The notes below the pieces were generated by a model that saw nothing but the letters and a program-made list of their open reading frames with translations, was not told the DNA's origin and made no database searches. Positions 3,182 to 57,848 of a DNA stretch of 58,270 bases are shown in pieces (positions within the stretch are counted from its first letter, which is position 1; the number at the start of each line of letters is the position of its first letter). A program made the position numbers and the translations under genes. Origin of the DNA: an uncultured Candidatus Saccharibacteria bacterium (lineage in GTDB: Bacteria > Patescibacteriota > Minisyncoccia > UBA9983); assembly GCA_964438405.1 (NCBI GenBank), contig CAYTKF010000003.1, positions 1 through 58,270 on the forward strand, read 5' to 3'.

Positions 3182-4888
3182 ATGCAGTTTTCTGACGTAT
3201 TAATCAAAAAGAAAATTATAGACGCGCGAAAACTCGCGAAACTCACCACGAGGTCAAAGGAGGAAAATTTGTCTCTGGAAAAACTTCTTTTGGATGAAGG
3301 TATTTCAGAAAAAGAAATTTTGGATGCCAAGGGAGAGGCCGGAGAAATTTTAACGCGGACCATTGTTAAAGATCAGATCTCCTTTGAAGTTTTAAAACAA
3401 ATTCCAGAAGAAGCCGCCAGGCATTATAAATTTGTTCCCCTTGAAATTAAAGACGGGGTTTTGGAAGTGGGAATGGTGAATCCAGAAAATGTAGAGGCAA
3501 GAGAGGCTTTACAATTTATTGTCTCAAAATTAAATATTCCATTCAGAATTTATTTGATTACCGATAAAGATTTGGAAATAGTGCTTGACTCTTATAAGGG
3601 CATTCGCGGAGAGGTGGGCAAGGTTTTGAATGAACTGGAATCAGCCCTGGCAGAAACCATACGCGAGGAATCTGTTGAAGATTTTTTAAAAACAGAGATT
3701 AAATTTATAGAAGATGCGCCAATTACCAAAATGGTTGCAGTGATATTAAAACACGCTATATCCGGCAATGCCTCTGATATTCATATCGAACCGACTTCCG
3801 AAAAAACAAAAGTGCGTTTTAGGGTTGATGGTATTTTATATACAAGCATAATGCTTCCTATCAGCGTTCATGATGCCATTGTCTCCAGAATAAAAATTTT
3901 AACCAACCTGAAAATTGATGAAAAACGTAAGCCTCAAGACGGCAGATTCGAAACAAAATTAGAAAATAGAAATATAGATTTTCGCGTTTCCACCTTCCCA
4001 ACTTTTTGGGGAGAAAAGGTTGTCATTCGTATTCTGGATAAAGTAAAAGGGGTTAGGAGTTTAAAAGAAATCGGTTTTTCCGAAGACCAGCTTGTGATTA
4101 CGAAAGAGGCGATAAAAAGACCTTACGGCATGATATTAATTACCGGTCCCACCGGTTCCGGCAAAACCACCACTCTTTATGCTATGCTCCAGGAACTGGA
4201 TAAAGAAAAATATAATGTTGTAAGTTTGGAGGATCCCATTGAATACAATATAGAGGGAGTAAGTCAGTCCCAAGTTCTTCCAGAAATAGGTTATGATTTT
4301 GCAAATGGTCTGCGTTCAATTTTACGTCAGGACCCGGACATGATAATGGTTGGTGAGATTCGCGACAAAGAAACTGCCGCTCTGGCCATACAGGCGGCCT
4401 TAACAGGACATCTTGTTTTTGCAACACTGCACACTAACAATGCTTCTGGCGTAATACCAAGGTTAGTGGATATGGGCGTTGACCCGTTTTTAATTGCCCC
4501 AACCATTCTTTTGGCCATAGGTCAAAGACTTGCCAGGACGCTTTGTCCTGATTCAAAAAAAGAAATACCCTTACTGGGAGCCGCAAGGGAAAAAATTGAA
4601 AAAGAGATAGCTGATATTCCGGAAAACATAAGAAAAAATATTAAAACTCCGGATAGAATATACCAGGGTGTGCCTTCGGCCACATGCCCTAAGGGGGCAA
4701 GGGGAAGAATAGGTATTTTTGAGATTTTGAGGAAATCTCCGGAACTGGAAAATATAATTTTAAATAAACCTATAGATGTCGAGATAATGAAAGAGGCCCG
4801 GCGCCAGGGCATGTATACAATGAGAGAGCAGGGCCTGATGAAATTATTTGAGGGGATAATTAGCTTTGAGGAATTTAATAAGTTATAA
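3182..4888 (+). CDS. pilB: Type IV pilus extension ATPase PilB (GspE/PulE family)
   Basis: ASDIHIEP, PQDGR, Walker A GPTGSGKTTT, EDPIEY, LRQDPD, VGEIRD, ALTGHLV. Confidence 0.96.
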   Translation: MQFSDVLIKKKIIDARKLAKLTTRSKEENLSLEKLLLDEGISEKEILDAKGEAGEILTRTIVKDQISFEVLKQIPEEAARHYKFVPLEIKDGVLEVGMVNPENVEAREALQFIVSKLNIPFRIYLITDKDLEIVLDSYKGIRGEVGKVLNELESALAETIREESVEDFLKTEIKFIEDAPITKMVAVILKHAISGNASDIHIEPTSEKTKVRFRVDGILYTSIMLPISVHDAIVSRIKILTNLKIDEKRKPQDGRFETKLENRNIDFRVSTFPTFWGEKVVIRILDKVKGVRSLKEIGFSEDQLVITKEAIKRPYGMILITGPTGSGKTTTLYAMLQELDKEKYNVVSLEDPIEYNIEGVSQSQVLPEIGYDFANGLRSILRQDPDMIMVGEIRDKETAALAIQAALTGHLVFATLHTNNASGVIPRLVDMGVDPFLIAPTILLAIGQRLARTLCPDSKKEIPLLGAAREKIEKEIADIPENIRKNIKTPDRIYQGVPSATCPKGARGRIGIFEILRKSPELENIILNKPIDVEIMKEARRQGMYTMREQGLMKLFEGIISFEEFNKL

Positions 4889-5280: not shown

Positions 5281-6344
5281 GTGACTATAAAAAAGAACTG
5301 GAAAAATTAATTCTTATCACTGTCAAAGAGGGCGCATCAGACCTTCATATTTCTGCCGGCAGACATCCAACCATAAGGGTTTCCGGTGCGCTCATTCCGC
5401 TTGTTAAAGAACAAATTCTTTCCTCAGAAGATACGGAGGGATTAGTTTTCGTAATGTTGGGAGAAGAAAAAATGAAGGAATTTATCAAGGAAAAAGAATT
5501 TGATTTTTCTTATGCCTTTGAAGATACTGCAAGATTTAGAGTAAACGCCTTTTATCAGAGAGGTCTTATCAGTGCATCTTTAAGGCTCATTCCGGTCAAT
5601 ATCAAAAATATAGCAGAACTTAATTTGCCAAATTCCCTTCAGGATTTTGCCAATATGGAGCAGGGATTTTTTTTGGTGGTTGGGCCGATTGGCCATGGCA
5701 AATCAACCACCCTTGCATCCATGATTGATTACATCAATCACAATCGTAGCGAGCACGTTCTTACGATAGAAGATCCGATTGAATATTTTTTTAATCAGGA
5801 TAAATCAATAATTGACCAAAGAGAGGTTAAAAACGACACAAAGGATTTTCGTTCAGCGCTCCGTTCCATGTTCAGAGAAGATGTTAATGTGGCCATGGTT
5901 GGCGAGATGAGGGATTTGGAAACAGTTTCTACAGCCATAACCGCTGCTGAAACCGGGCACTTGATTTTTTCTTCGCTTCACACCAACAATGCAGCCCAGA
6001 CAATAGACAGAATTATAGATTCTTTTCCGGCAGAACAGCAGAATCAGATACGGCTTCAGCTTTCCAGCGCTCTCATAGGAGTTTTTTCCCAGAGACTTGT
6101 GCCGCGAATATCAGGCGGGCTGATTCCGGCCTACGAGCTTTTAATATCCAATTCGGCAATAAAAAATTTGATACGCGAGGGAAAAACTCACGAGATAGAC
6201 ATTGTCATAGAAACGAGTTTTGAACAGGGGATGGTCAGTCTCAATCGTTCTCTGGCAAATTTAGTCCGTCAGGGAGAAGTGACAATTGATAATGCTCTTG
6301 TCAATTCTCTTAATCCAAAAGAGCTGAGAGGAATGATTGGATAA
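5277..6344 (+). CDS. pilT: Type IV pilus retraction ATPase PilT
   Basis: ASDLHI, RFRVNAF, Walker A GPIGHGKSTT, TIEDPIEY, GEMRD, AAETGHL, LHTNNA. Confidence 0.95.
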   Translation: MSDYKKELEKLILITVKEGASDLHISAGRHPTIRVSGALIPLVKEQILSSEDTEGLVFVMLGEEKMKEFIKEKEFDFSYAFEDTARFRVNAFYQRGLISASLRLIPVNIKNIAELNLPNSLQDFANMEQGFFLVVGPIGHGKSTTLASMIDYINHNRSEHVLTIEDPIEYFFNQDKSIIDQREVKNDTKDFRSALRSMFREDVNVAMVGEMRDLETVSTAITAAETGHLIFSSLHTNNAAQTIDRIIDSFPAEQQNQIRLQLSSALIGVFSQRLVPRISGGLIPAYELLISNSAIKNLIREGKTHEIDIVIETSFEQGMVSLNRSLANLVRQGEVTIDNALVNSLNPKELRGMIG

Positions 6345-7563
6345 TATGTTATATAAATATTCAGCGACAACGCCGGATGGGCAGAGAAGCAGCGGCACCA
6401 TTGAGGCGGCCAACATCGAACTGGCTGTTAATTCTTTACAAACCAAAAATCTGATTATCATGTCCATTGATCCGGCTGATAAGTCTCCTTTCTTGTCGTT
6501 AAAACTTTCAACGATTGTTTCTTTTTTTGAAAGAATAAAAAACAGGGATATTGTTATTTTTTCCAGGCAACTGGCCACATTTTTTGAGGCCAAGGTTTCA
6601 ACCATGGCTTCCTTTAAAATGCTTATTACTGAAACAGATAATCCGGTTCTGCGCAGGGTTGTTGCCTCTGTTTTGGACGATGTTCAGGGAGGTGTCTCTC
6701 TTTCTCAGGCCATGTCCAAACATCCGGATGCCTTTTCCCGTTTTTATGTAAGTATGGTTAAATCAGCAGAAGAATCAGGAAAGCTTGATGAAACATTTAC
6801 TTATCTGGCTGATTACATGGAGCGTTCATATGAATTGTCTTCAAAAGCCAAAAATGCCCTTATCTATCCGGCCTTTATTATATCAGCGCTCATTGTTGTT
6901 TTGATACTGATGATGGTTTATGTCATTCCCAACTTGAAGACAATTTTAACAGAATCCGGCCAGACACTTCCTTTTTACACACAAATTTTAATAGGGCTGA
7001 GCAATTTTTTTATAAATTTTGGCGTCTATCTTTTGATTCTTTTGGCAATAGGCGCGTATTTTTTATGGAGATATAAAAGGACGGAAAACGGTAAAGTTGC
7101 TGTTTCCAGATTTATTCTCTCCGTGCCGTTATTCGGGCCAATTTTCAAAAAATTTTATATTTCCCGCATTACGGATAATTTAGAGACATCTCTTTCAAGC
7201 GGCATATCAATGGTCAGGGCGCTTGAAATTGCCTCTGATGTTGCAGGAGATAGCGTTTACGGAAAAATATTAGTTGATTCTGTAAATGATGTGAAGGCCG
7301 GAGAATCGCTTTCTGTTTCTTTGGGCCGTTACAAGGAGGTTCCCTCTATTGTTTCTCAGATGATTAAAATAGGAGAAGAGACCGGCAAGCTAAATTTCAT
7401 TTTAAAAACTCTGAGCCGCTTTTACAGAAAAGAGGTTAATAACGCAGTGGATACTTTGGTGAGTTTAATAGAGCCGGTTATGATTATTGTTTTGGGAGGA
7501 TTTGTCGGCATTTTTATTTTGGCAATATTGGGACCGATTTATAGTTTGACTTCAGCCATGTAA
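6337..7563 (+). CDS. pilC: Type IV pilus inner-membrane platform protein PilC (GspF family)
   Basis: FSRQLAT, AEESGKLD, LIYPAF, MIKIGEETG, LIEPVMI. Confidence 0.95.
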   Translation: MDNMLYKYSATTPDGQRSSGTIEAANIELAVNSLQTKNLIIMSIDPADKSPFLSLKLSTIVSFFERIKNRDIVIFSRQLATFFEAKVSTMASFKMLITETDNPVLRRVVASVLDDVQGGVSLSQAMSKHPDAFSRFYVSMVKSAEESGKLDETFTYLADYMERSYELSSKAKNALIYPAFIISALIVVLILMMVYVIPNLKTILTESGQTLPFYTQILIGLSNFFINFGVYLLILLAIGAYFLWRYKRTENGKVAVSRFILSVPLFGPIFKKFYISRITDNLETSLSSGISMVRALEIASDVAGDSVYGKILVDSVNDVKAGESLSVSLGRYKEVPSIVSQMIKIGEETGKLNFILKTLSRFYRKEVNNAVDTLVSLIEPVMIIVLGGFVGIFILAILGPIYSLTSAM

Positions 7564-7597: not shown

Positions 7598-8122
7598 ATG
7601 AATAAAAAAAGCAAAGGTTTCACTTTATTGGAGCTTTTGGTAGTCATTGCCGTTATTGGACTTTTTGCCGCAGTTATTCTTGCCTCGCTCAATAGCGCCA
7701 GAACAAAATCGCGGGATTCCAAAAGAGTTGTGGATTTAAAGAGTCTTCGAACAGCCCTGGAAATGTACTATGATACCTGCAGACAATATCCATCTACTCT
7801 GGCATTGGCCACTAATAATGGATGTCCTTCGGGAACTACGTTCGGGTCTTTTATCTCGGTTTTGCCAATAGACCCGCTCAGTGGCAGTTATAAATATACC
7901 GGGCTTGGCAACGCCTCTCCTCTTTCCTGCAACTCGTATCATTTGGGCGCTAATCTTGAAGATAAGACAAACCAATCTCTTAGCACTGATATTGATGCAT
8001 CTGCCGCCACCGCCTGCAGCGGCACAGATTTTAACGGCGTGGCCAATGAAAGCGCCTGCGTTAGTAATTGCGATTGTGCTGCGTCTGTTGCAACCAGATA
8101 TTGTTATGATATTAAGCCATAA
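7598..8122 (+). CDS. Type IV major pilin 1
   Basis: Class III signal KSKG|FTLLE, hydrophobic helix, ARTKSRDSKR motif, 8 Cys in the globular domain. Confidence 0.92.
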   Translation: MNKKSKGFTLLELLVVIAVIGLFAAVILASLNSARTKSRDSKRVVDLKSLRTALEMYYDTCRQYPSTLALATNNGCPSGTTFGSFISVLPIDPLSGSYKYTGLGNASPLSCNSYHLGANLEDKTNQSLSTDIDASAATACSGTDFNGVANESACVSNCDCAASVATRYCYDIKP

Positions 8123-8196: not shown

Positions 8197-8234
8197 CCTG
8201 CCCGCAACGCTTGAGCGTAGCGATGGCGGGCGGG
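8197..8234 (+). repeat. REP-like GC-rich palindrome (CCTGCC family)
   Basis: CCTGCCCGC...GCGGGCGGG hairpin; near-identical inverted copy at 18233-18263. Confidence 0.8.
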
Positions 8235-8270
8235 GTCGATTTAAAAATTATTTCATTATTAAAATAAAAA

Positions 8271-8762
8271 ATGAATAAAAGAAACAAAGGTTTTACCTTA
8301 ATTGAACTTCTGGTAGTCATTGCCATTATCGGCTTATTGTCTTCTATTGTTTTGGCCTCGCTTAACAGCGCCAGAAAGAAAGCCAGAGACGCAAGAAGAG
8401 TGGCTGATTTAAAACAGCTTCAGATAGCATTAGAAATGTATTTTGACACTAATAAGCTTTATCCAACAGGCGCAAGCGCTACGGCCTTAGATCTGCTTAA
8501 AACCGGAGGATATATATCAGTAGTCCCTGTTGATCCTTTAGGCGGAACTTATGCATACGCAGGATTGGGTTCTGGCACTTCCTGCACTTCTTACCACCTC
8601 GGATCCAGTCTTGAAGACACTAACAGCCCGCTTCTTGGTAACGACGCTGATGCTGCATCTGGCACCGCCTGTACTGGCAGCACTGATTTTTCCGGCGTTG
8701 ATACAGCCAAATGCGCTGCCGCAGACTTGGGAGGCGCTGACTGCTATGACCTTAAGCCGTAA
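8271..8762 (+). CDS. Type IV major pilin 2 (paralog of pilin 1)
   Basis: RNKG|FTLIE signal; shares CxSYHLGxxLED and CYDxKP with pilin 1; 4 Cys. Confidence 0.92.
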
Positions 8763-8764
8763 TC

Positions 8765-8902
8765 GTGATTGATATTTTTGTTTTTATTTTCGGAACGATT
8801 ATAGGGAGCTTCCTCAATGTAATTATTTTACGCTTTAACACCGGCGAGTCGGCCCTAACGGGCGGCTCCCGGTGTTTTAGTTGTAGGCCAAACTATTATT
8901 AA
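8765..8902 (+). pseudogene. pilD: Truncated 5' fragment of a prepilin peptidase (pilD stub)
   Basis: Hand translation from GTG 8765: [45 protein letters not shown]. This aligns with the N-terminus of the intact PilD at 9667 ([26 protein letters not shown]...SKCFSCR). Not in the ORF track. Confidence 0.88.
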
Positions 8903-9597
8903 ATATCTACATCGAAGTCGGACTTCGACGCAAGTGGCCAATCACGAAGAAATTCTTCATATTCTTTTTTATTTTTAAATTGGTCAGTAATTATCTCTGA
9001 TCCGGATATTATCTGGTCTTTAAAGTTTTCTTCTAAAAACATCTTTAAACTTGACCAAGGATAGTTTAAAAGTTTATTTTTCGAAGAATTCCATTCTTTT
9101 AAGTTGTGCTGTCTCCAACCCTTACCGATTAAGAAATCCAAAGGATTAAGATGAATGTAAACAGAAAGATGAAGCAGATATTCATTTGAATTTACATGTT
9201 TAGATTTAAATTTGCTTTCAAAAAGGGGGCCGGTTCTGCCATTTTTTATATTTATGTATTTAGCAATTGATGTATTGCATTTACGTATAAATTCAGTAAT
9301 TCCTTTTTCTTTAACCTCTTTTAATAAAAGATGATAATGGTCTGGCATTATTGCATAACAGAGAACATCCACCAATTTTTCTCCTCGCCTTGCAATTTCT
9401 GTAGCTCTTTTAAATGTTGAATTTCTGTCGTTTCTTAAATAATCAAATGCTTGACCCGATTTTGTTGAATTGGCCAATAAAAATGTTTGGGCAAGTTTTG
9501 ATGCATTCTTGGTATCTTTAAACTCGGGAATATTAAAAATTGTTCTGCTGTATATATGATAGTATTCACCAGGAACAAATTTTTCTTTTCTCACCAT
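8899..9597 (-). mobile_element. REP-associated tyrosine transposase (RAYT, IS200/Y1 HUH superfamily)
   Basis: GEYYHIYSR, CYAIMPDHYHLLL (HUH), GPLFESKFKS, YIHLNP, YPWSS motifs. Confidence 0.9.
8908..8934. repeat. 27-bp hairpin direct repeat, copy 1 (overlaps the RAYT 3' end)
   Basis: TACATCGAAGTCGGACTTCGACGCAAG, containing the inverted repeat TCGAAGTC-G-GACTTCGA; identical to 9608-9634. Confidence 0.92.
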
Positions 9598-9607
9598 TAA
9601 TTTATTT

Positions 9608-9634
9608 TACATCGAAGTCGGACTTCGACGCAAG
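9608..9634. repeat. 27-bp hairpin direct repeat, copy 2 (RAYT promoter region)
   Basis: Identical to 8908-8934, 700 bp apart. On the minus strand it overlaps TTGCGT-18nt-TAAAAT, which ends 6 nt before the RAYT ATG. Confidence 0.92.
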
Positions 9635-9666
9635 ACAAATGGATATAATAATGTTAATATTAAAAT

Positions 9667-10404
9667 ATGGTAGTTAGTTTTTTTGTTTTTATTTTCGGAA
9701 CGATAGTTGGTAGTTTTTTGAATGTCGTTATTTTGCGTTACAATAGCGGTGAATCAATTATTAAAAATAGTTCTAAATGTTTTAGTTGTAGAGAAAGATT
9801 GAAATGGTATGAAATGATTCCGGTTTTAAGTTTTATATTCCAAAGGGGCAGATGCCGGCATTGCAAAAGTAAAATTTCATGGCAGTACCCGATTGTTGAA
9901 TTACTTACTGGTTTAGTTTTTTTATTAATATTTTTAAAATTCCAATTTACGCTCGTTACGAGTTACTACTTTGTAGTTTTCAGTATCTTAATAATTATTT
10001 CTGTTTATGATTTGCGCCACCAGATTATTCCCAATTTATTAGTTTATATTTTCGATATTTTGGCATTTTTAAATTTATTACTAATTACGAATTACGAATT
10101 ACGAATTACGAATTTTTTGGCTGGTTTATGTTTCTTCGCGTTTTTTGCTTTAATCTGGCTTTTGAGTAAGGGCAGGGCAATGGGCTTTGGTGATGCCAAA
10201 TTGGCATTGGGCATAGGCTGGTTTTTGGGTTTAAACAAGGGTATTTTTGCTCTCTTGTTGTCTTTTTGGCTTGGTGCCATTGTGGGTATTTTCCTTTTAA
10301 TTTTCTTTAATAAAAAGTATAATATAAAAAGTAGCATCCCCTTCGGTCCTTTTTTGGCCATGGGAGCTGCGGTTGCATTTTTATGGACAAAAAACTTTTT
10401 TTAA
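9667..10404 (+). CDS. pilD: Prepilin peptidase (A24) PilD
   Basis: GSFLNVVILR, CFSC/CRHC Zn sites, YDLRHQIIP and MGFGDAKL aspartyl motifs, IPFGPFLA. Confidence 0.95.
   Translation: MVVSFFVFIFGTIVGSFLNVVILRYNSGESIIKNSSKCFSCRERLKWYEMIPVLSFIFQRGRCRHCKSKISWQYPIVELLTGLVFLLIFLKFQFTLVTSYYFVVFSILIIISVYDLRHQIIPNLLVYIFDILAFLNLLLITNYELRITNFLAGLCFFAFFALIWLLSKGRAMGFGDAKLALGIGWFLGLNKGIFALLLSFWLGAIVGIFLLIFFNKKYNIKSSIPFGPFLAMGAAVAFLWTKNFF
10083..10114. repeat. Heptamer tandem repeat (AATTACG)x4.6 inside pilD
   Basis: AATTACG AATTACG AATTACG AATTACG AATT, encoding ITNYELRITN. Confidence 0.9.
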
Positions 10405-10760
10405 TATCAGTTATTATAGTTGCTGTTTTTACTGGTATTTATTATTCACCCCTTATAAAAAATAAACAAGGCGATAATACCATTGTTTTAATTTTGGATT
10501 ATGGCAATAATAAGAAACAATCTTTTAAACTATCCACAGAGGAACCATACCGAGTATGGAGTTTGCTTCAGCAGGTGGCAGCCGTCTCAAATACAATTTT
10601 GGTACCGGATAATAATTTTTATCCACAGAAAATAGATAGTCCTGACGGAGATATTGCAAACAAAAATTGGAATTTTTATGTTGATGGAATTAAACAAGAA
10701 AAATCACCGTTTGAAACGATGGTCAGTCCTCCGGCCGAAATTATATTTCGTCTGGAATAA
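10383..10760 (+). CDS. Membrane-anchored protein, DUF4430-like
   Basis: N-terminal TM helix; C-terminal WNFYVDG...SPFETMV resembles the W-x-F-x-VNG motif of DUF4430 (recognised from memory only). Confidence 0.5.
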   Translation: MDKKLFLISVIIVAVFTGIYYSPLIKNKQGDNTIVLILDYGNNKKQSFKLSTEEPYRVWSLLQQVAAVSNTILVPDNNFYPQKIDSPDGDIANKNWNFYVDGIKQEKSPFETMVSPPAEIIFRLE

Positions 10761-16078: not shown

Positions 16079-17491
16079 ATGGCTGTAATAAATTTGGGGG
16101 AATTAAATATAAAAAAGGCCAGGGAATTGATTGATAAAAAAGAAATTTCCTGCAGGGAACTGCTCGCGCTTTATCAAAAAAATATCAAAGACAAAAATGA
16201 AAATGTTAACGCATTTCTGGAAGTTTTTGATGATGCAGATGAATTTGCAGAAAGGACTGACAAGGAAATTTTATCAGGCAAAGAATTCAAAGAGCTTGCT
16301 GGTATTCCCATTGCCATTAAAGACAACATTTTAATAAAAGAAAAAATTTGCTCGGCTGGCTCAAAAATTTTGGAAAATTATCACGCAACATACGATGCAA
16401 CTGTCATAAAAAAACTTCGCGATGCAGGAGCAATTTTTATAGGCAGAACAAACATGGACGAATTTGCAATGGGTTGTTCCACTGAGAATTCTAGCTACGG
16501 CCCCACAAAAAATCCCTATGATTTGGAGCGAGTTCCTGGCGGTTCCTCTGGCGGTTCAGCAACGGCAGTTGCAATACAGGGCGCAATTGCTTCTCTTGGT
16601 TCTGATACGGGCGGTTCCATACGCCAGCCAGCAAGTTTCTGCGGAGTTGTGGGATTGAAACCGACTTACGGAACTGTTTCGCGCTATGGTCTCATTGCCA
16701 TGGCTTCGTCTTTTGACCAGATAGGGCCGATTACAAAAAGTGTTGAGGACGCGGAAATAATTTTTAATATTATACGCGGAAAAGATAAAATGGATTCAAC
16801 ATCTGTAGAAAGTCGTCAGTCATCAGTCGTCAGTCGTCAGCTTAAAATCGGTCTTTTAAAATACGATAGAAATGGCGTTGATAAAGAAATTAACGACGCC
16901 ATTGATTCTTCGGTAAAGATCTTAAGAAGACTGGGCTACGAAGTTGCAGAAATTGACATGCCCAATCTTGAGTACGCCCTTGCATGTTATTATATTCTTG
17001 TTCCCGCAGAAATTTCCGCAAACCTGGCTCGTTTTGACGGCGTCCGATACGGGCTTTCTATTAAGGGGGAAAATTTAATGGAAGATTATTTAAAGACAAG
17101 GGCTGAAGGTTTTGGCAAAGAGGTCAAAAGAAGAATAATGCTTGGCACCTATGTTCTTTCTGCCGGATATTACGATCAATATTACGCCAAGGCTCAGAAA
17201 GTCAGGGTTTTAATAAAAAAAGATTTTGAGCGTGCATTTAAAAATTTTGATTTAATCTTGTCGCCGGTTTCTCCGACTCTGCCGTTTAAAATAGGGGAGA
17301 AAGTTGATGACCCACTTAAAATGTATCTGTCAGATATTTTTACCGTTTCCGTAAACCTGGCAGGTTTGCCGGCAATATCAATTCCTTTCTCAAAAAATAT
17401 CGGCGTTCAATTCATTGCGCCGTGGTTTAGAGAAGATGTATTATTTAACATAGGCAAGCAATATGAACAATATAGCGGCGCAAGCGCCTGA
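16079..17491 (+). CDS. gatA: Asp/Glu-tRNA amidotransferase subunit A
   Basis: IAIKDN, RTNMDEFAMG, PGGSSGGSA, GSDTGGSIRQPA amidase signature, RRIMLGTY. Confidence 0.96.
   Translation: MAVINLGELNIKKARELIDKKEISCRELLALYQKNIKDKNENVNAFLEVFDDADEFAERTDKEILSGKEFKELAGIPIAIKDNILIKEKICSAGSKILENYHATYDATVIKKLRDAGAIFIGRTNMDEFAMGCSTENSSYGPTKNPYDLERVPGGSSGGSATAVAIQGAIASLGSDTGGSIRQPASFCGVVGLKPTYGTVSRYGLIAMASSFDQIGPITKSVEDAEIIFNIIRGKDKMDSTSVESRQSSVVSRQLKIGLLKYDRNGVDKEINDAIDSSVKILRRLGYEVAEIDMPNLEYALACYYILVPAEISANLARFDGVRYGLSIKGENLMEDYLKTRAEGFGKEVKRRIMLGTYVLSAGYYDQYYAKAQKVRVLIKKDFERAFKNFDLILSPVSPTLPFKIGEKVDDPLKMYLSDIFTVSVNLAGLPAISIPFSKNIGVQFIAPWFREDVLFNIGKQYEQYSGASA
16811..16840. repeat. Heptamer tandem repeat (AGTCGTC)x4.3 inside gatA
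   Basis: AGTCGTC AGTCATC AGTCGTC AGTCGTC AG, encoding SRQSSVVSRQ. Confidence 0.85.
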
Positions 17492-57764: not shown

Positions 57765-57848
57765 TACGCAGATTTGCGCAGATTTCTACGCAGATTCTCG
57801 CGGATTTTATCCGCGTTTATCCGCGCAGGCATCTGCGTTTATCTGCGA
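57765..57848 (+). repeat. Repeat-built intervening sequence in 23S (helix 10 region)
   Basis: Four CGCRGAT units followed by four inverted ATCYGCG units. Confidence 0.8.

Follow-up and report, generated by a model that had tools for sequence, protein, structure and literature searches.

Two 5' ends of pilD on either side of a RAYT-like transposase gene: a candidate recombination scar in a Patescibacteria type IV pilus operon

How one operon comes to contain two different beginnings of the same gene is the question raised by a 58 kb stretch of DNA from an uncultured Patescibacteria bacterium of the class Paceibacteria / Parcubacteria (contig CAYTKF010000003.1, positions 1 to 58,270; the whole stretch is here called the window). 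It carries a type IV pilus operon in which the 5' end of pilD, the gene for the prepilin peptidase, is present once as a short stub directly after a pilin gene and once as the start of an intact gene, with a gene for a Y1 transposase resembling the RAYT enzymes (REP-associated tyrosine transposases, REP being repetitive extragenic palindromic sequences) between the two. PilD processes all pilins to their mature form, and in Patescibacteria a central part in attachment and DNA uptake is attributed to type IV pili. A preliminary description of the locus had proposed that the transposase gene and the 5' segment of a pilD from another lineage had recombined into the operon, replacing the start and the promoter of the gene in an apparent allele replacement. 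Our analysis gives about an even chance that the locus is a recombination scar of this kind, in which RAYT and a foreign pilD 5' segment were joined into the native pilD; the term allele replacement is an overstatement, as only about 41 codons look replaced. A recombination scar next to a mobile-element-like unit is an ordinary kind of event, here in a functionally important gene.

The stub (8765..8902, plus strand, 45 aa) begins with a GTG codon 2 nt past the stop codon of the second pilin gene, pilin2, and ends with TAA at 8900-8902, overlapping the stop codon of the convergent transposase gene, a 232-aa open reading frame (ORF) on the minus strand (8899..9597). Codons 1-41 (8765-8887) encode the N-terminus of PilD through the first CxxC, and the tail (8888-8902), consisting of PNYY and the stop codon, is not derived from pilD. 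The match to PF06750 (A24_N_bact; E 9e-8) is confined to profile positions 1-34 of 84 and takes in just the first CxxC, which bears out the preliminary description of these codons as a PilD N-terminus that stops where the transposase gene ends. Judged by its domain content the stub is a fragment of PilD and not a member of the prepilin peptidase family. A hidden Markov model (HMM) of the N-terminus, made from 119 homologues, gave 82.4 bits for the stub and 82.2 bits for the N-terminus of the intact protein, and the match of the stub to PilD is thus far beyond chance. No frameshift or internal stop codon is found in the stub. Judging by this score, the undamaged reading frame and the divergence described below, the stub is a dead remnant: the allele from which it derives is old and distinct, and its truncation is recent.

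The intact pilD (9667..10404, plus strand, 245 aa) scores 119 bits on PF06750 (profile positions 1-84) and 54 bits on PF01478. It has the A24_N_bact domain with two CxxC pairs and the Peptidase_A24 membrane domain that define the peptidase A24 family, and both catalytic-aspartate motifs, YDLRHQ and GFGDAKL (GxGD), can be read from its translation.

The order pilin-pilin-stub-RAYT-pilD was also found in two assemblies of the ENA (ERZ27284377 and ERZ27284381) and three of Logan (SRR8863431, SRR8863436 and SRR8863440). These differ from the window by one single-nucleotide polymorphism each and by a 7-nt difference in repeat copy number, and are otherwise identical to it. Look-ups of the exact proteins of pilin1, pilin2, orf125 and pilD returned the same arrangement only, with no variant allele, and that of PilC gave no match.

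The two 5' ends are homologous and clearly different. They share 27 of 41 residues and 83 of 126 nucleotides, in agreement with the preliminary description, whose quoted peptides were correct, and outside one 25-nt block their nucleotide identity is 59 %, no more than that of random species pairs. The stub is closer to the pilD 5' ends of two other species, the relatives L173 (94 of 126 nt) and L175 (92 of 126 nt), than to the copy with which it shares an operon, while the intact 5' end is nearer to that of L010 (72 %). The low identity outside the block and the closer match to pilD of other species show that the stub is not a recent duplicate, and the rejection of a simple target-site duplication in the preliminary description stands. 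The closest relative of the stub protein is P0033 (33 of 41 residues). A near-identical relative was not found in an exhaustive search of representatives, the best matches having about 70-80 % identity over 36-41 aa, and none of 68 other loci examined contained a comparable stub.

Two exact tracts interrupt this divergence. One of 25 nt (8775..8799, plus strand) matches 9680-9704 of the intact pilD, and one of 14 nt, TGTTTTAGTTGTAG (8873..8886, plus strand), matches 9778-9791. When pilD 5' ends of different species were compared in 458 pairs with less than 75 % identity, the longest in-register exact run was 19 nt and the 95th percentile 14 nt, and at most 11 of the 14 positions of the terminal tract were matched in any of 31 other species. 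The tracts suggest recombination joints or conversion patches between the copies. As the pilD homology of the stub stops directly after the 14-nt tract, this tract would be the joint itself.

The most informative relative is L173 (GCA_041643235.1), whose PilC and PilD are 65 and 68 % identical to those of the window. Its operon has the same order (pilB, response regulator, pilT, pilC, pilin, pilD, orf124, minor pilins, ligA) with no RAYT, and its pilin gene is directly followed by pilD, the GTG start of which lies 3 nt past the pilin stop codon; synteny thus agrees with what the preliminary description would lead one to expect of a relative. The same tight pilin-GTG-pilD junction is present in L012 and L028, and the stub therefore occupies the ancestral position with the ancestral start. 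PilC, the body of PilD and pilin2 of the window are all nearest to L173, and by sequence and location pilin2 (8271..8762, plus strand, 163 aa, PF07963) is the positional orthologue of the pilin directly upstream of pilD in L173.

Composition separates the first 41 codons of the intact gene from the rest. Their third-position GC content (GC3) is 0.17-0.20, followed by 0.30 for codons 42-139 and 0.42 for codons 150 to the end. The corresponding values are 0.49, 0.28 and 0.40-0.42 in L173 and 0.49, 0.28 and 0.56-0.61 in L175, and codons 1-41 of the stub have a GC3 of 0.49. In the intact gene the N-terminus differs from the body by −0.19, and of 62 pilD genes (mean −0.01, sd 0.08) only one has a lower value. 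Codons 1-41 of the intact pilD are thus compositionally aberrant and the remainder resembles its relatives. Where stub and intact copy encode the same amino acid with different codons, the stub has the G/C-ending and the intact copy the A/T-ending codon 11 times, and the reverse occurs twice. The transposase gene is also low in GC3 (0.25, z = −4.1). When similarity profiles over the 119 homologues were compared with that of residues 43-245, the stub correlated better (rho 0.58) than the present N-terminus (0.39; null median 0.67). A max-chi-square scan against L173 and L175 found its strongest breakpoint shortly ahead of the stub boundary, at alignment position 97.

Between the transposase unit and the intact pilD lies a spacer of 32 nt (9635..9666, plus strand) with a perfect TATAAT at 9644-9649, as read from the sequence. 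It is probably the new promoter of pilD. Similar tataat boxes precede pilD in many relatives, and a consensus promoter scan gave no result above chance. The new start has a TATAAT spacer of its own, and expression of pilD would be uncoupled from that of pilin2.

Taken together, the ancestral junction, the break in GC3, the profile correlation and the new TATAAT spacer favour the stub as the native 5' end. Originally pilD would have followed pilin2 directly, with its GTG start 2 nt past the pilin stop codon, in the manner of L173. A segment of about 905 nt (8887-9791), comprising a hairpin-RAYT-hairpin unit, the TATAAT spacer and the initial ~41 codons of pilD as it stood in an unsampled lineage of higher AT content, would then have been joined in register after native codon 41. 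The native codons 1-41 would thereby be left as a dead stub running into the end of the RAYT gene, and the working pilD would be a chimera with a foreign start and promoter on a native body. The right joint was probably made by pairing at the shared TGTTTTAGTTGTAG, and the left joint would lie 24 nt outside the hairpin and about 11 nt from the RAYT stop codon, approximately where the end of a RAYT unit is expected. This structure would result if the native gene recombined by one crossover with a molecule, circular or linear, that carried the RAYT unit and its flank, and a homology-anchored illegitimate event would give the same product. The 25-nt tract could be a later patch of gene conversion or heteroduplex repair between the copies. 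The sequences directly show the layout and its presence in five assemblies, the deep divergence between the two 5' ends, the ancestral location of the stub and the break in composition; both the direction of the event and the formation of its joints we infer from them.

Homology-facilitated illegitimate recombination and Campbell-type single-crossover integration are known from naturally transformable bacteria. The window resembles such integrations in having one joint in a short identical or homeologous tract (14 nt) and the other non-homologous, and in an insert placed between a truncated and a complete copy of a shared segment. It differs in that the homology is very short and 40 % diverged. 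There is also a likeness to the replacement of promoters or 5' ends driven by insertion sequences (IS): a mobile-element-like unit stands directly upstream of pilD, and a leader with TATAAT replaces the coupling to the pilin gene. Unlike in those cases, the element of the window would have brought a replacement coding start fused in frame, and the promoter is putative.

Several observations weigh against this proposal. The background genes of the window scatter widely in GC3 (sd about 2 z-units), and the stub itself is GC3-rich compared to the gene body (95th percentile), an offset also present in L173. The profile correlation of the present N-terminus, at the 20th percentile of the null distribution, is no outlier, and the unconstrained max-chi-square mosaic test was not significant (p = 0.14). 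The 25-nt tract is not predicted by the model, which requires a secondary conversion event, and the route of the donor DNA is not obvious if uptake of foreign DNA needs the pilus. Among 5.8 billion proteins, 1.84 billion representatives, the GTDB species genomes and the JGI metagenomes, neither a donor nor an empty site nor a close relative turned up, and the direction must for this reason be read from composition and from synteny with distant relatives. The lineage is poorly sampled, since the best match of PilC among GTDB species representatives is 57 % identical and the nearest of the 5.8 billion proteins to PilD is 68 % identical. The import of RAYT and a foreign pilD 5' end, as first proposed, is the best-supported account through synteny, GC3 and profile, with an unsampled donor and a mosaic test that does not separate the two parts of the gene.

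The event may also have run in the opposite direction, which we consider rather unlikely. The recipient would then have had the order pilin1-RAYT-pilD, and an L173-like pilin2 together with the first 125 nt of its pilD would have been imported, the stub being a hitch-hiker. The order pilin-RAYT(−)-pilD occurs in at least 10 related loci, e.g. L175 and those of Giovannonibacteria, and could be native here. In addition, pilin1 (7598..8122, plus strand, 174 aa, PF07963 and PF08334) is an additional gene relative to L173, the closest syntenic relative, and also relative to L010, pilin genes are the most variable portion of the related pilus loci, and the stub at 82.4 bits still scores as a fresh PilD N-terminus. 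This direction would, however, make the native N-terminus of pilD a GC3 outlier against both its own body and its relatives, and would turn the position of the joint, 11 nt from the RAYT stop codon, into a coincidence. The codon composition of the supposedly imported pilin2 is typical of the host (z = −0.5), and PilC, the PilD body and pilin2 are all closest to the same relative, in which the tight junction is also found.

Replacement of the whole gene is unlikely as well. RAYT would here have arrived with a complete foreign pilD, and possibly with downstream genes, so that the stub would be the sole native remnant and the present pilD not a chimera. The result of the mosaic test fits such a history, and so does the identity of the intact pilD to L173, which is fairly even along its length (0.6-0.78); low GC3 is moreover shared by orf125 and one minor-pilin gene (z = −3.3). 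What speaks for a chimera instead is that the GC3 of codons 42-245 follows L173 and that of codons 1-41 does not, that the similarity profile of the stub fits the gene body, and that the exact 14-nt identity falls precisely at the end of the stub.

A local duplication of the pilD 5' end, for instance at the insertion of RAYT, with subsequent divergence of the dead copy, is very improbable and effectively excluded. The copies are indeed direct and in register, with a period of 905 nt and two identical tracts; outside the tracts, however, they are as diverged as those of different genera, and the stub is nearer to other species than to the resident copy. The dead copy would furthermore have gained GC within a genome that is AT-rich, and its HMM score and open frame give no sign of decay, and elements of the IS200/IS605 type produce no target duplications. 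The least probable explanation, a chimeric assembly of two co-occurring strains, is likewise effectively excluded: L175, with its RAYT-pilD arrangement, does co-occur in the assembly with the neighbouring ENA accession ERZ27284379, but the junctions are 100 % identical in the five assemblies from two assemblers, one Logan contig of 1,133 nt spans both, and the shared tracts (27, 25 and 14 nt) fall short of the k-mer lengths of the assemblies (k = 31 or larger). Of the two findings that were to overturn the preliminary description, a chimera is thus very unlikely, and the stub is not a recent duplicate.

The presence of RAYT beside pilD had been noted correctly, whereas its recurrence in related lineages and the hairpin repeats around it had been overlooked. 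The transposase belongs to the Y1 HUH family (PF01797, Y1_Tnp; 26.3 bits, cutoff 23). Its HUH motif (MPDHYHLLL) and the region of the catalytic tyrosine (YIHLNP) are intact, and H87, H89 and Y147 are invariant in an alignment of eight sequences. The gene lies between two copies of a 27-nt direct repeat, which contains the hairpin TCGAAGTCGGACTTCGA. The left copy (8908..8934, plus strand; palindrome 8912-8928) overlaps the final codons of RAYT and, read on the minus strand, leads into a T-run; this hairpin scored as terminator-like. The right copy (9608..9634, plus strand; palindrome 9612-9628), identical over all 27 nt, lies between the RAYT start and pilD. Both hairpins are REP-like and fold with z = −2.9 to −3.7. 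The repeat has two sites in the 58 kb, compared to 0.11 expected, both flanking RAYT and none elsewhere.

RAYT genes are bracketed by copies of a short palindrome (PMC3116915, PMC8266576), and the window gene likewise lies between cognate palindromes. The tetranucleotide GTAG is conserved 5' of the REP palindrome in RAYT/REP systems (PMC8266576, PMC3733652) and has a role in REP recognition (PMC8266576). In the window the minus strand of the left palindrome reads ...GATGTAG, with the tag 3' of the palindrome, and the right copy reads GTAA. No consistent GTAG tag was found across the palindromes of relatives, and no conserved cleavage motif appeared at a fixed distance from the hairpins. The NCBIfam RAYT model (NF047646) gave 41.8 bits, below its cutoff of 80. 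A search of the PDB with the single RAYT sequence had no match, and with a profile the best was ISDra2 TnpA (E = 0.13). Because of the sub-cutoff score, the lack of a consistent GTAG tag and the lack of dispersed copies in view, membership in RAYT sensu stricto is not established. An empty site for the RAYT unit of the window was not found.

As in the REPtrons of Proteobacteria (RAYT, TnpA-REP), the window gene is bracketed by palindromes and codes for a Y1 HUH homologue in which both the HUH motif and the catalytic-Tyr region are present. It is unlike them in a C-terminal extension of about 80 aa with a conserved Y..WSS motif, in having two flanking palindromes only in 58 kb with no dispersed REP or REPIN population in view, in that these two copies are direct and not inverted, and in the low RAYT model score and missing family-wide 5' GTAG tag. 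The IS200/IS605 elements (IS608, ISDra2) resemble the window unit in being small (~0.73 kb in the window) with a single Y1 transposase gene, in carrying at each end a subterminal hairpin, both on one strand, and in having neither terminal inverted repeats nor a target duplication. The window protein, however, has about 230 aa compared to 140-150 aa in those elements, and the ends of its unit share 27 identical nucleotides instead of being distinct left and right ends.

A further reading, which we regard as doubtful, is that RAYT itself made the cassette and that RAYT units are active diversifiers of pilin-pilD intervals in Patescibacteria. The enzyme would have cleaved the left end of its own unit and also, ectopically, pilD just after ...GTTGTAG, releasing a circle with the unit, the promoter and the first 41 codons, and a different allele of pilD would have taken up this circle at the homologous position. 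The joint does follow GTAG, which is of interest in view of the part that GTAG plays in REP recognition (PMC8266576) but is only a lead.

RAYT homologues (27-38 % identity) occur between pilC and pilD in 8 of 80 species loci ascertained by PilC, and in L175. The RAYT-bearing pilC-pilD loci are L014, L016, L022, L070, L026, L045, L067, L025, L120, L129, L133/L134 and L175, and here the gene mostly runs antisense to pilD and directly precedes it. The pilC-pilD interval makes up 8.1 % of the 1.31 Mb surveyed and holds all eight RAYT matches; four of the loci, from Giovannonibacteria, probably represent one event. Among RAYT loci of the JGI metagenomes, searched with an alignment of five RAYT sequences, 4 of 80 adjoin pilus genes and 76 do not, and a RAYT family dedicated to pilus loci was rejected on this count. 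The pilin-pilD interval is a local hot spot for RAYT and not a dedicated association. A common type of 5' end among RAYT-linked pilD genes was also rejected, as the RAYT-linked loci of a first comparison are only 49-61 % identical to the 5' end of the window; the nearest RAYT-linked 5' end is that of L175 (88 of 126 nt). Literature searches on RAYT with pilins or Patescibacteria gave no relevant result.

RAYT is a discrete unit: of 88 relatives most have the same lineage-specific palindrome on both of its sides, and at least two hairpin types are found upstream of pilD, GAAGTCSGACTTC and AAACACYSAGTGTT. The pairs of near-identical RAYT units that were compared retain at least one common flank and so set no limits to the unit. 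The metagenome contig L123 has two different RAYT units 5 kb apart. In Giovannonibacteria the RAYT coding sequence holds a third copy of the flanking palindrome in frame, encoding e.g. ...TEVGLRY..., in the variable part that separates the first strand from the HUH motif (L014 13070-13092, L016 12395-12417, L022 13225-13245 and L070 2599-2618). A fragment of a RAYT C-terminus (HMM positions 175-226) lies beside the intact gene in L014 (12353-12580). In L018 a solitary hairpin, ctatcgaggtcggatctcgatat, stands upstream of pilD at about 10400-10440 with no RAYT gene, which suggests the remnant of a lost RAYT unit.

The intact pilD also contains a feature that varies between the assemblies, a heptanucleotide repeat at 10077..10114 (plus strand) with four copies of ATTACGA at 10084-10111 after a degenerate ATTACTA copy, the top-scoring tandem repeat of the window. 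The 4-copy allele, which is in frame, is present in the window and the two ENA assemblies. The three Logan assemblies have a 3-copy allele that is frameshifted and cuts PilD to 159 aa, before the GFGD motif. The unit length is not a multiple of three, the repeat lies within an ORF and its copy variants switch the frame, as in contingency loci. This suggests, at the level of the sequence, a repeat-driven switch of the prepilin peptidase between ON (4-copy) and OFF (3-copy). Heptamer repeats of at least three copies were found in 8 of 65 related pilD genes (window, L173, L175, L010, L029, L033, L035 and L049) at two conserved positions (~nt 270-305 and 413-441), with differing unit sequences. 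Their density was 12 in 54.6 kb of pilD compared to 35 in 1,081 kb of flanking DNA. The pilD genes of L023 (11978-12975), L075 (10747-11485) and L088 (5409-6116) appear split or truncated, with N-terminal-domain ORFs of 126, 157 and 116 aa, respectively, and may be frameshifts, possibly also repeat-driven. Elsewhere in the window, AGTCGTC is repeated 4.3 times at 16811-16840 within a 470-aa amidase-family gene (PF01425), in frame here, and near the window end (57765-57825) there are 22-nt tandem repeats with 10-nt sub-periods, TACGCAGATTCGCGCAGATTTC twice followed by TTTATCCGCG twice.

The pilus operon as a whole begins with pilB (3182-4888) and continues with a response regulator gene, pilT, pilC (6337-7563), the two pilin genes, the stub-RAYT-pilD region, orf125, four minor-pilin-like genes and ligA. 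The single pilin of L173 is 74 % identical to pilin2 and 56 % to pilin1, and the closest database match of pilin2 is 70 % identical. In the gap between the two pilin genes a GC-rich hairpin (8197..8236, plus strand; DNA fold −13.6 kcal/mol, z = −2.35) may act as a terminator- or attenuator-like element after the first of them.

A single scar with an unsampled donor is of value mainly as a lead, and the recurrent placement of RAYT and the ON/OFF repeat alleles of pilD are the more testable and more interesting ones. If the proposed import is true, this lineage would have swapped the start and the regulation of PilD, from coupling with a pilin gene to a promoter of its own, in an event linked to a Y1 transposase. 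The locus would then be an example of hairpin-flanked Y1 units that carry pieces of host genes, and the pilin-pilD interval would be a hot spot of recombination in these reduced genomes.

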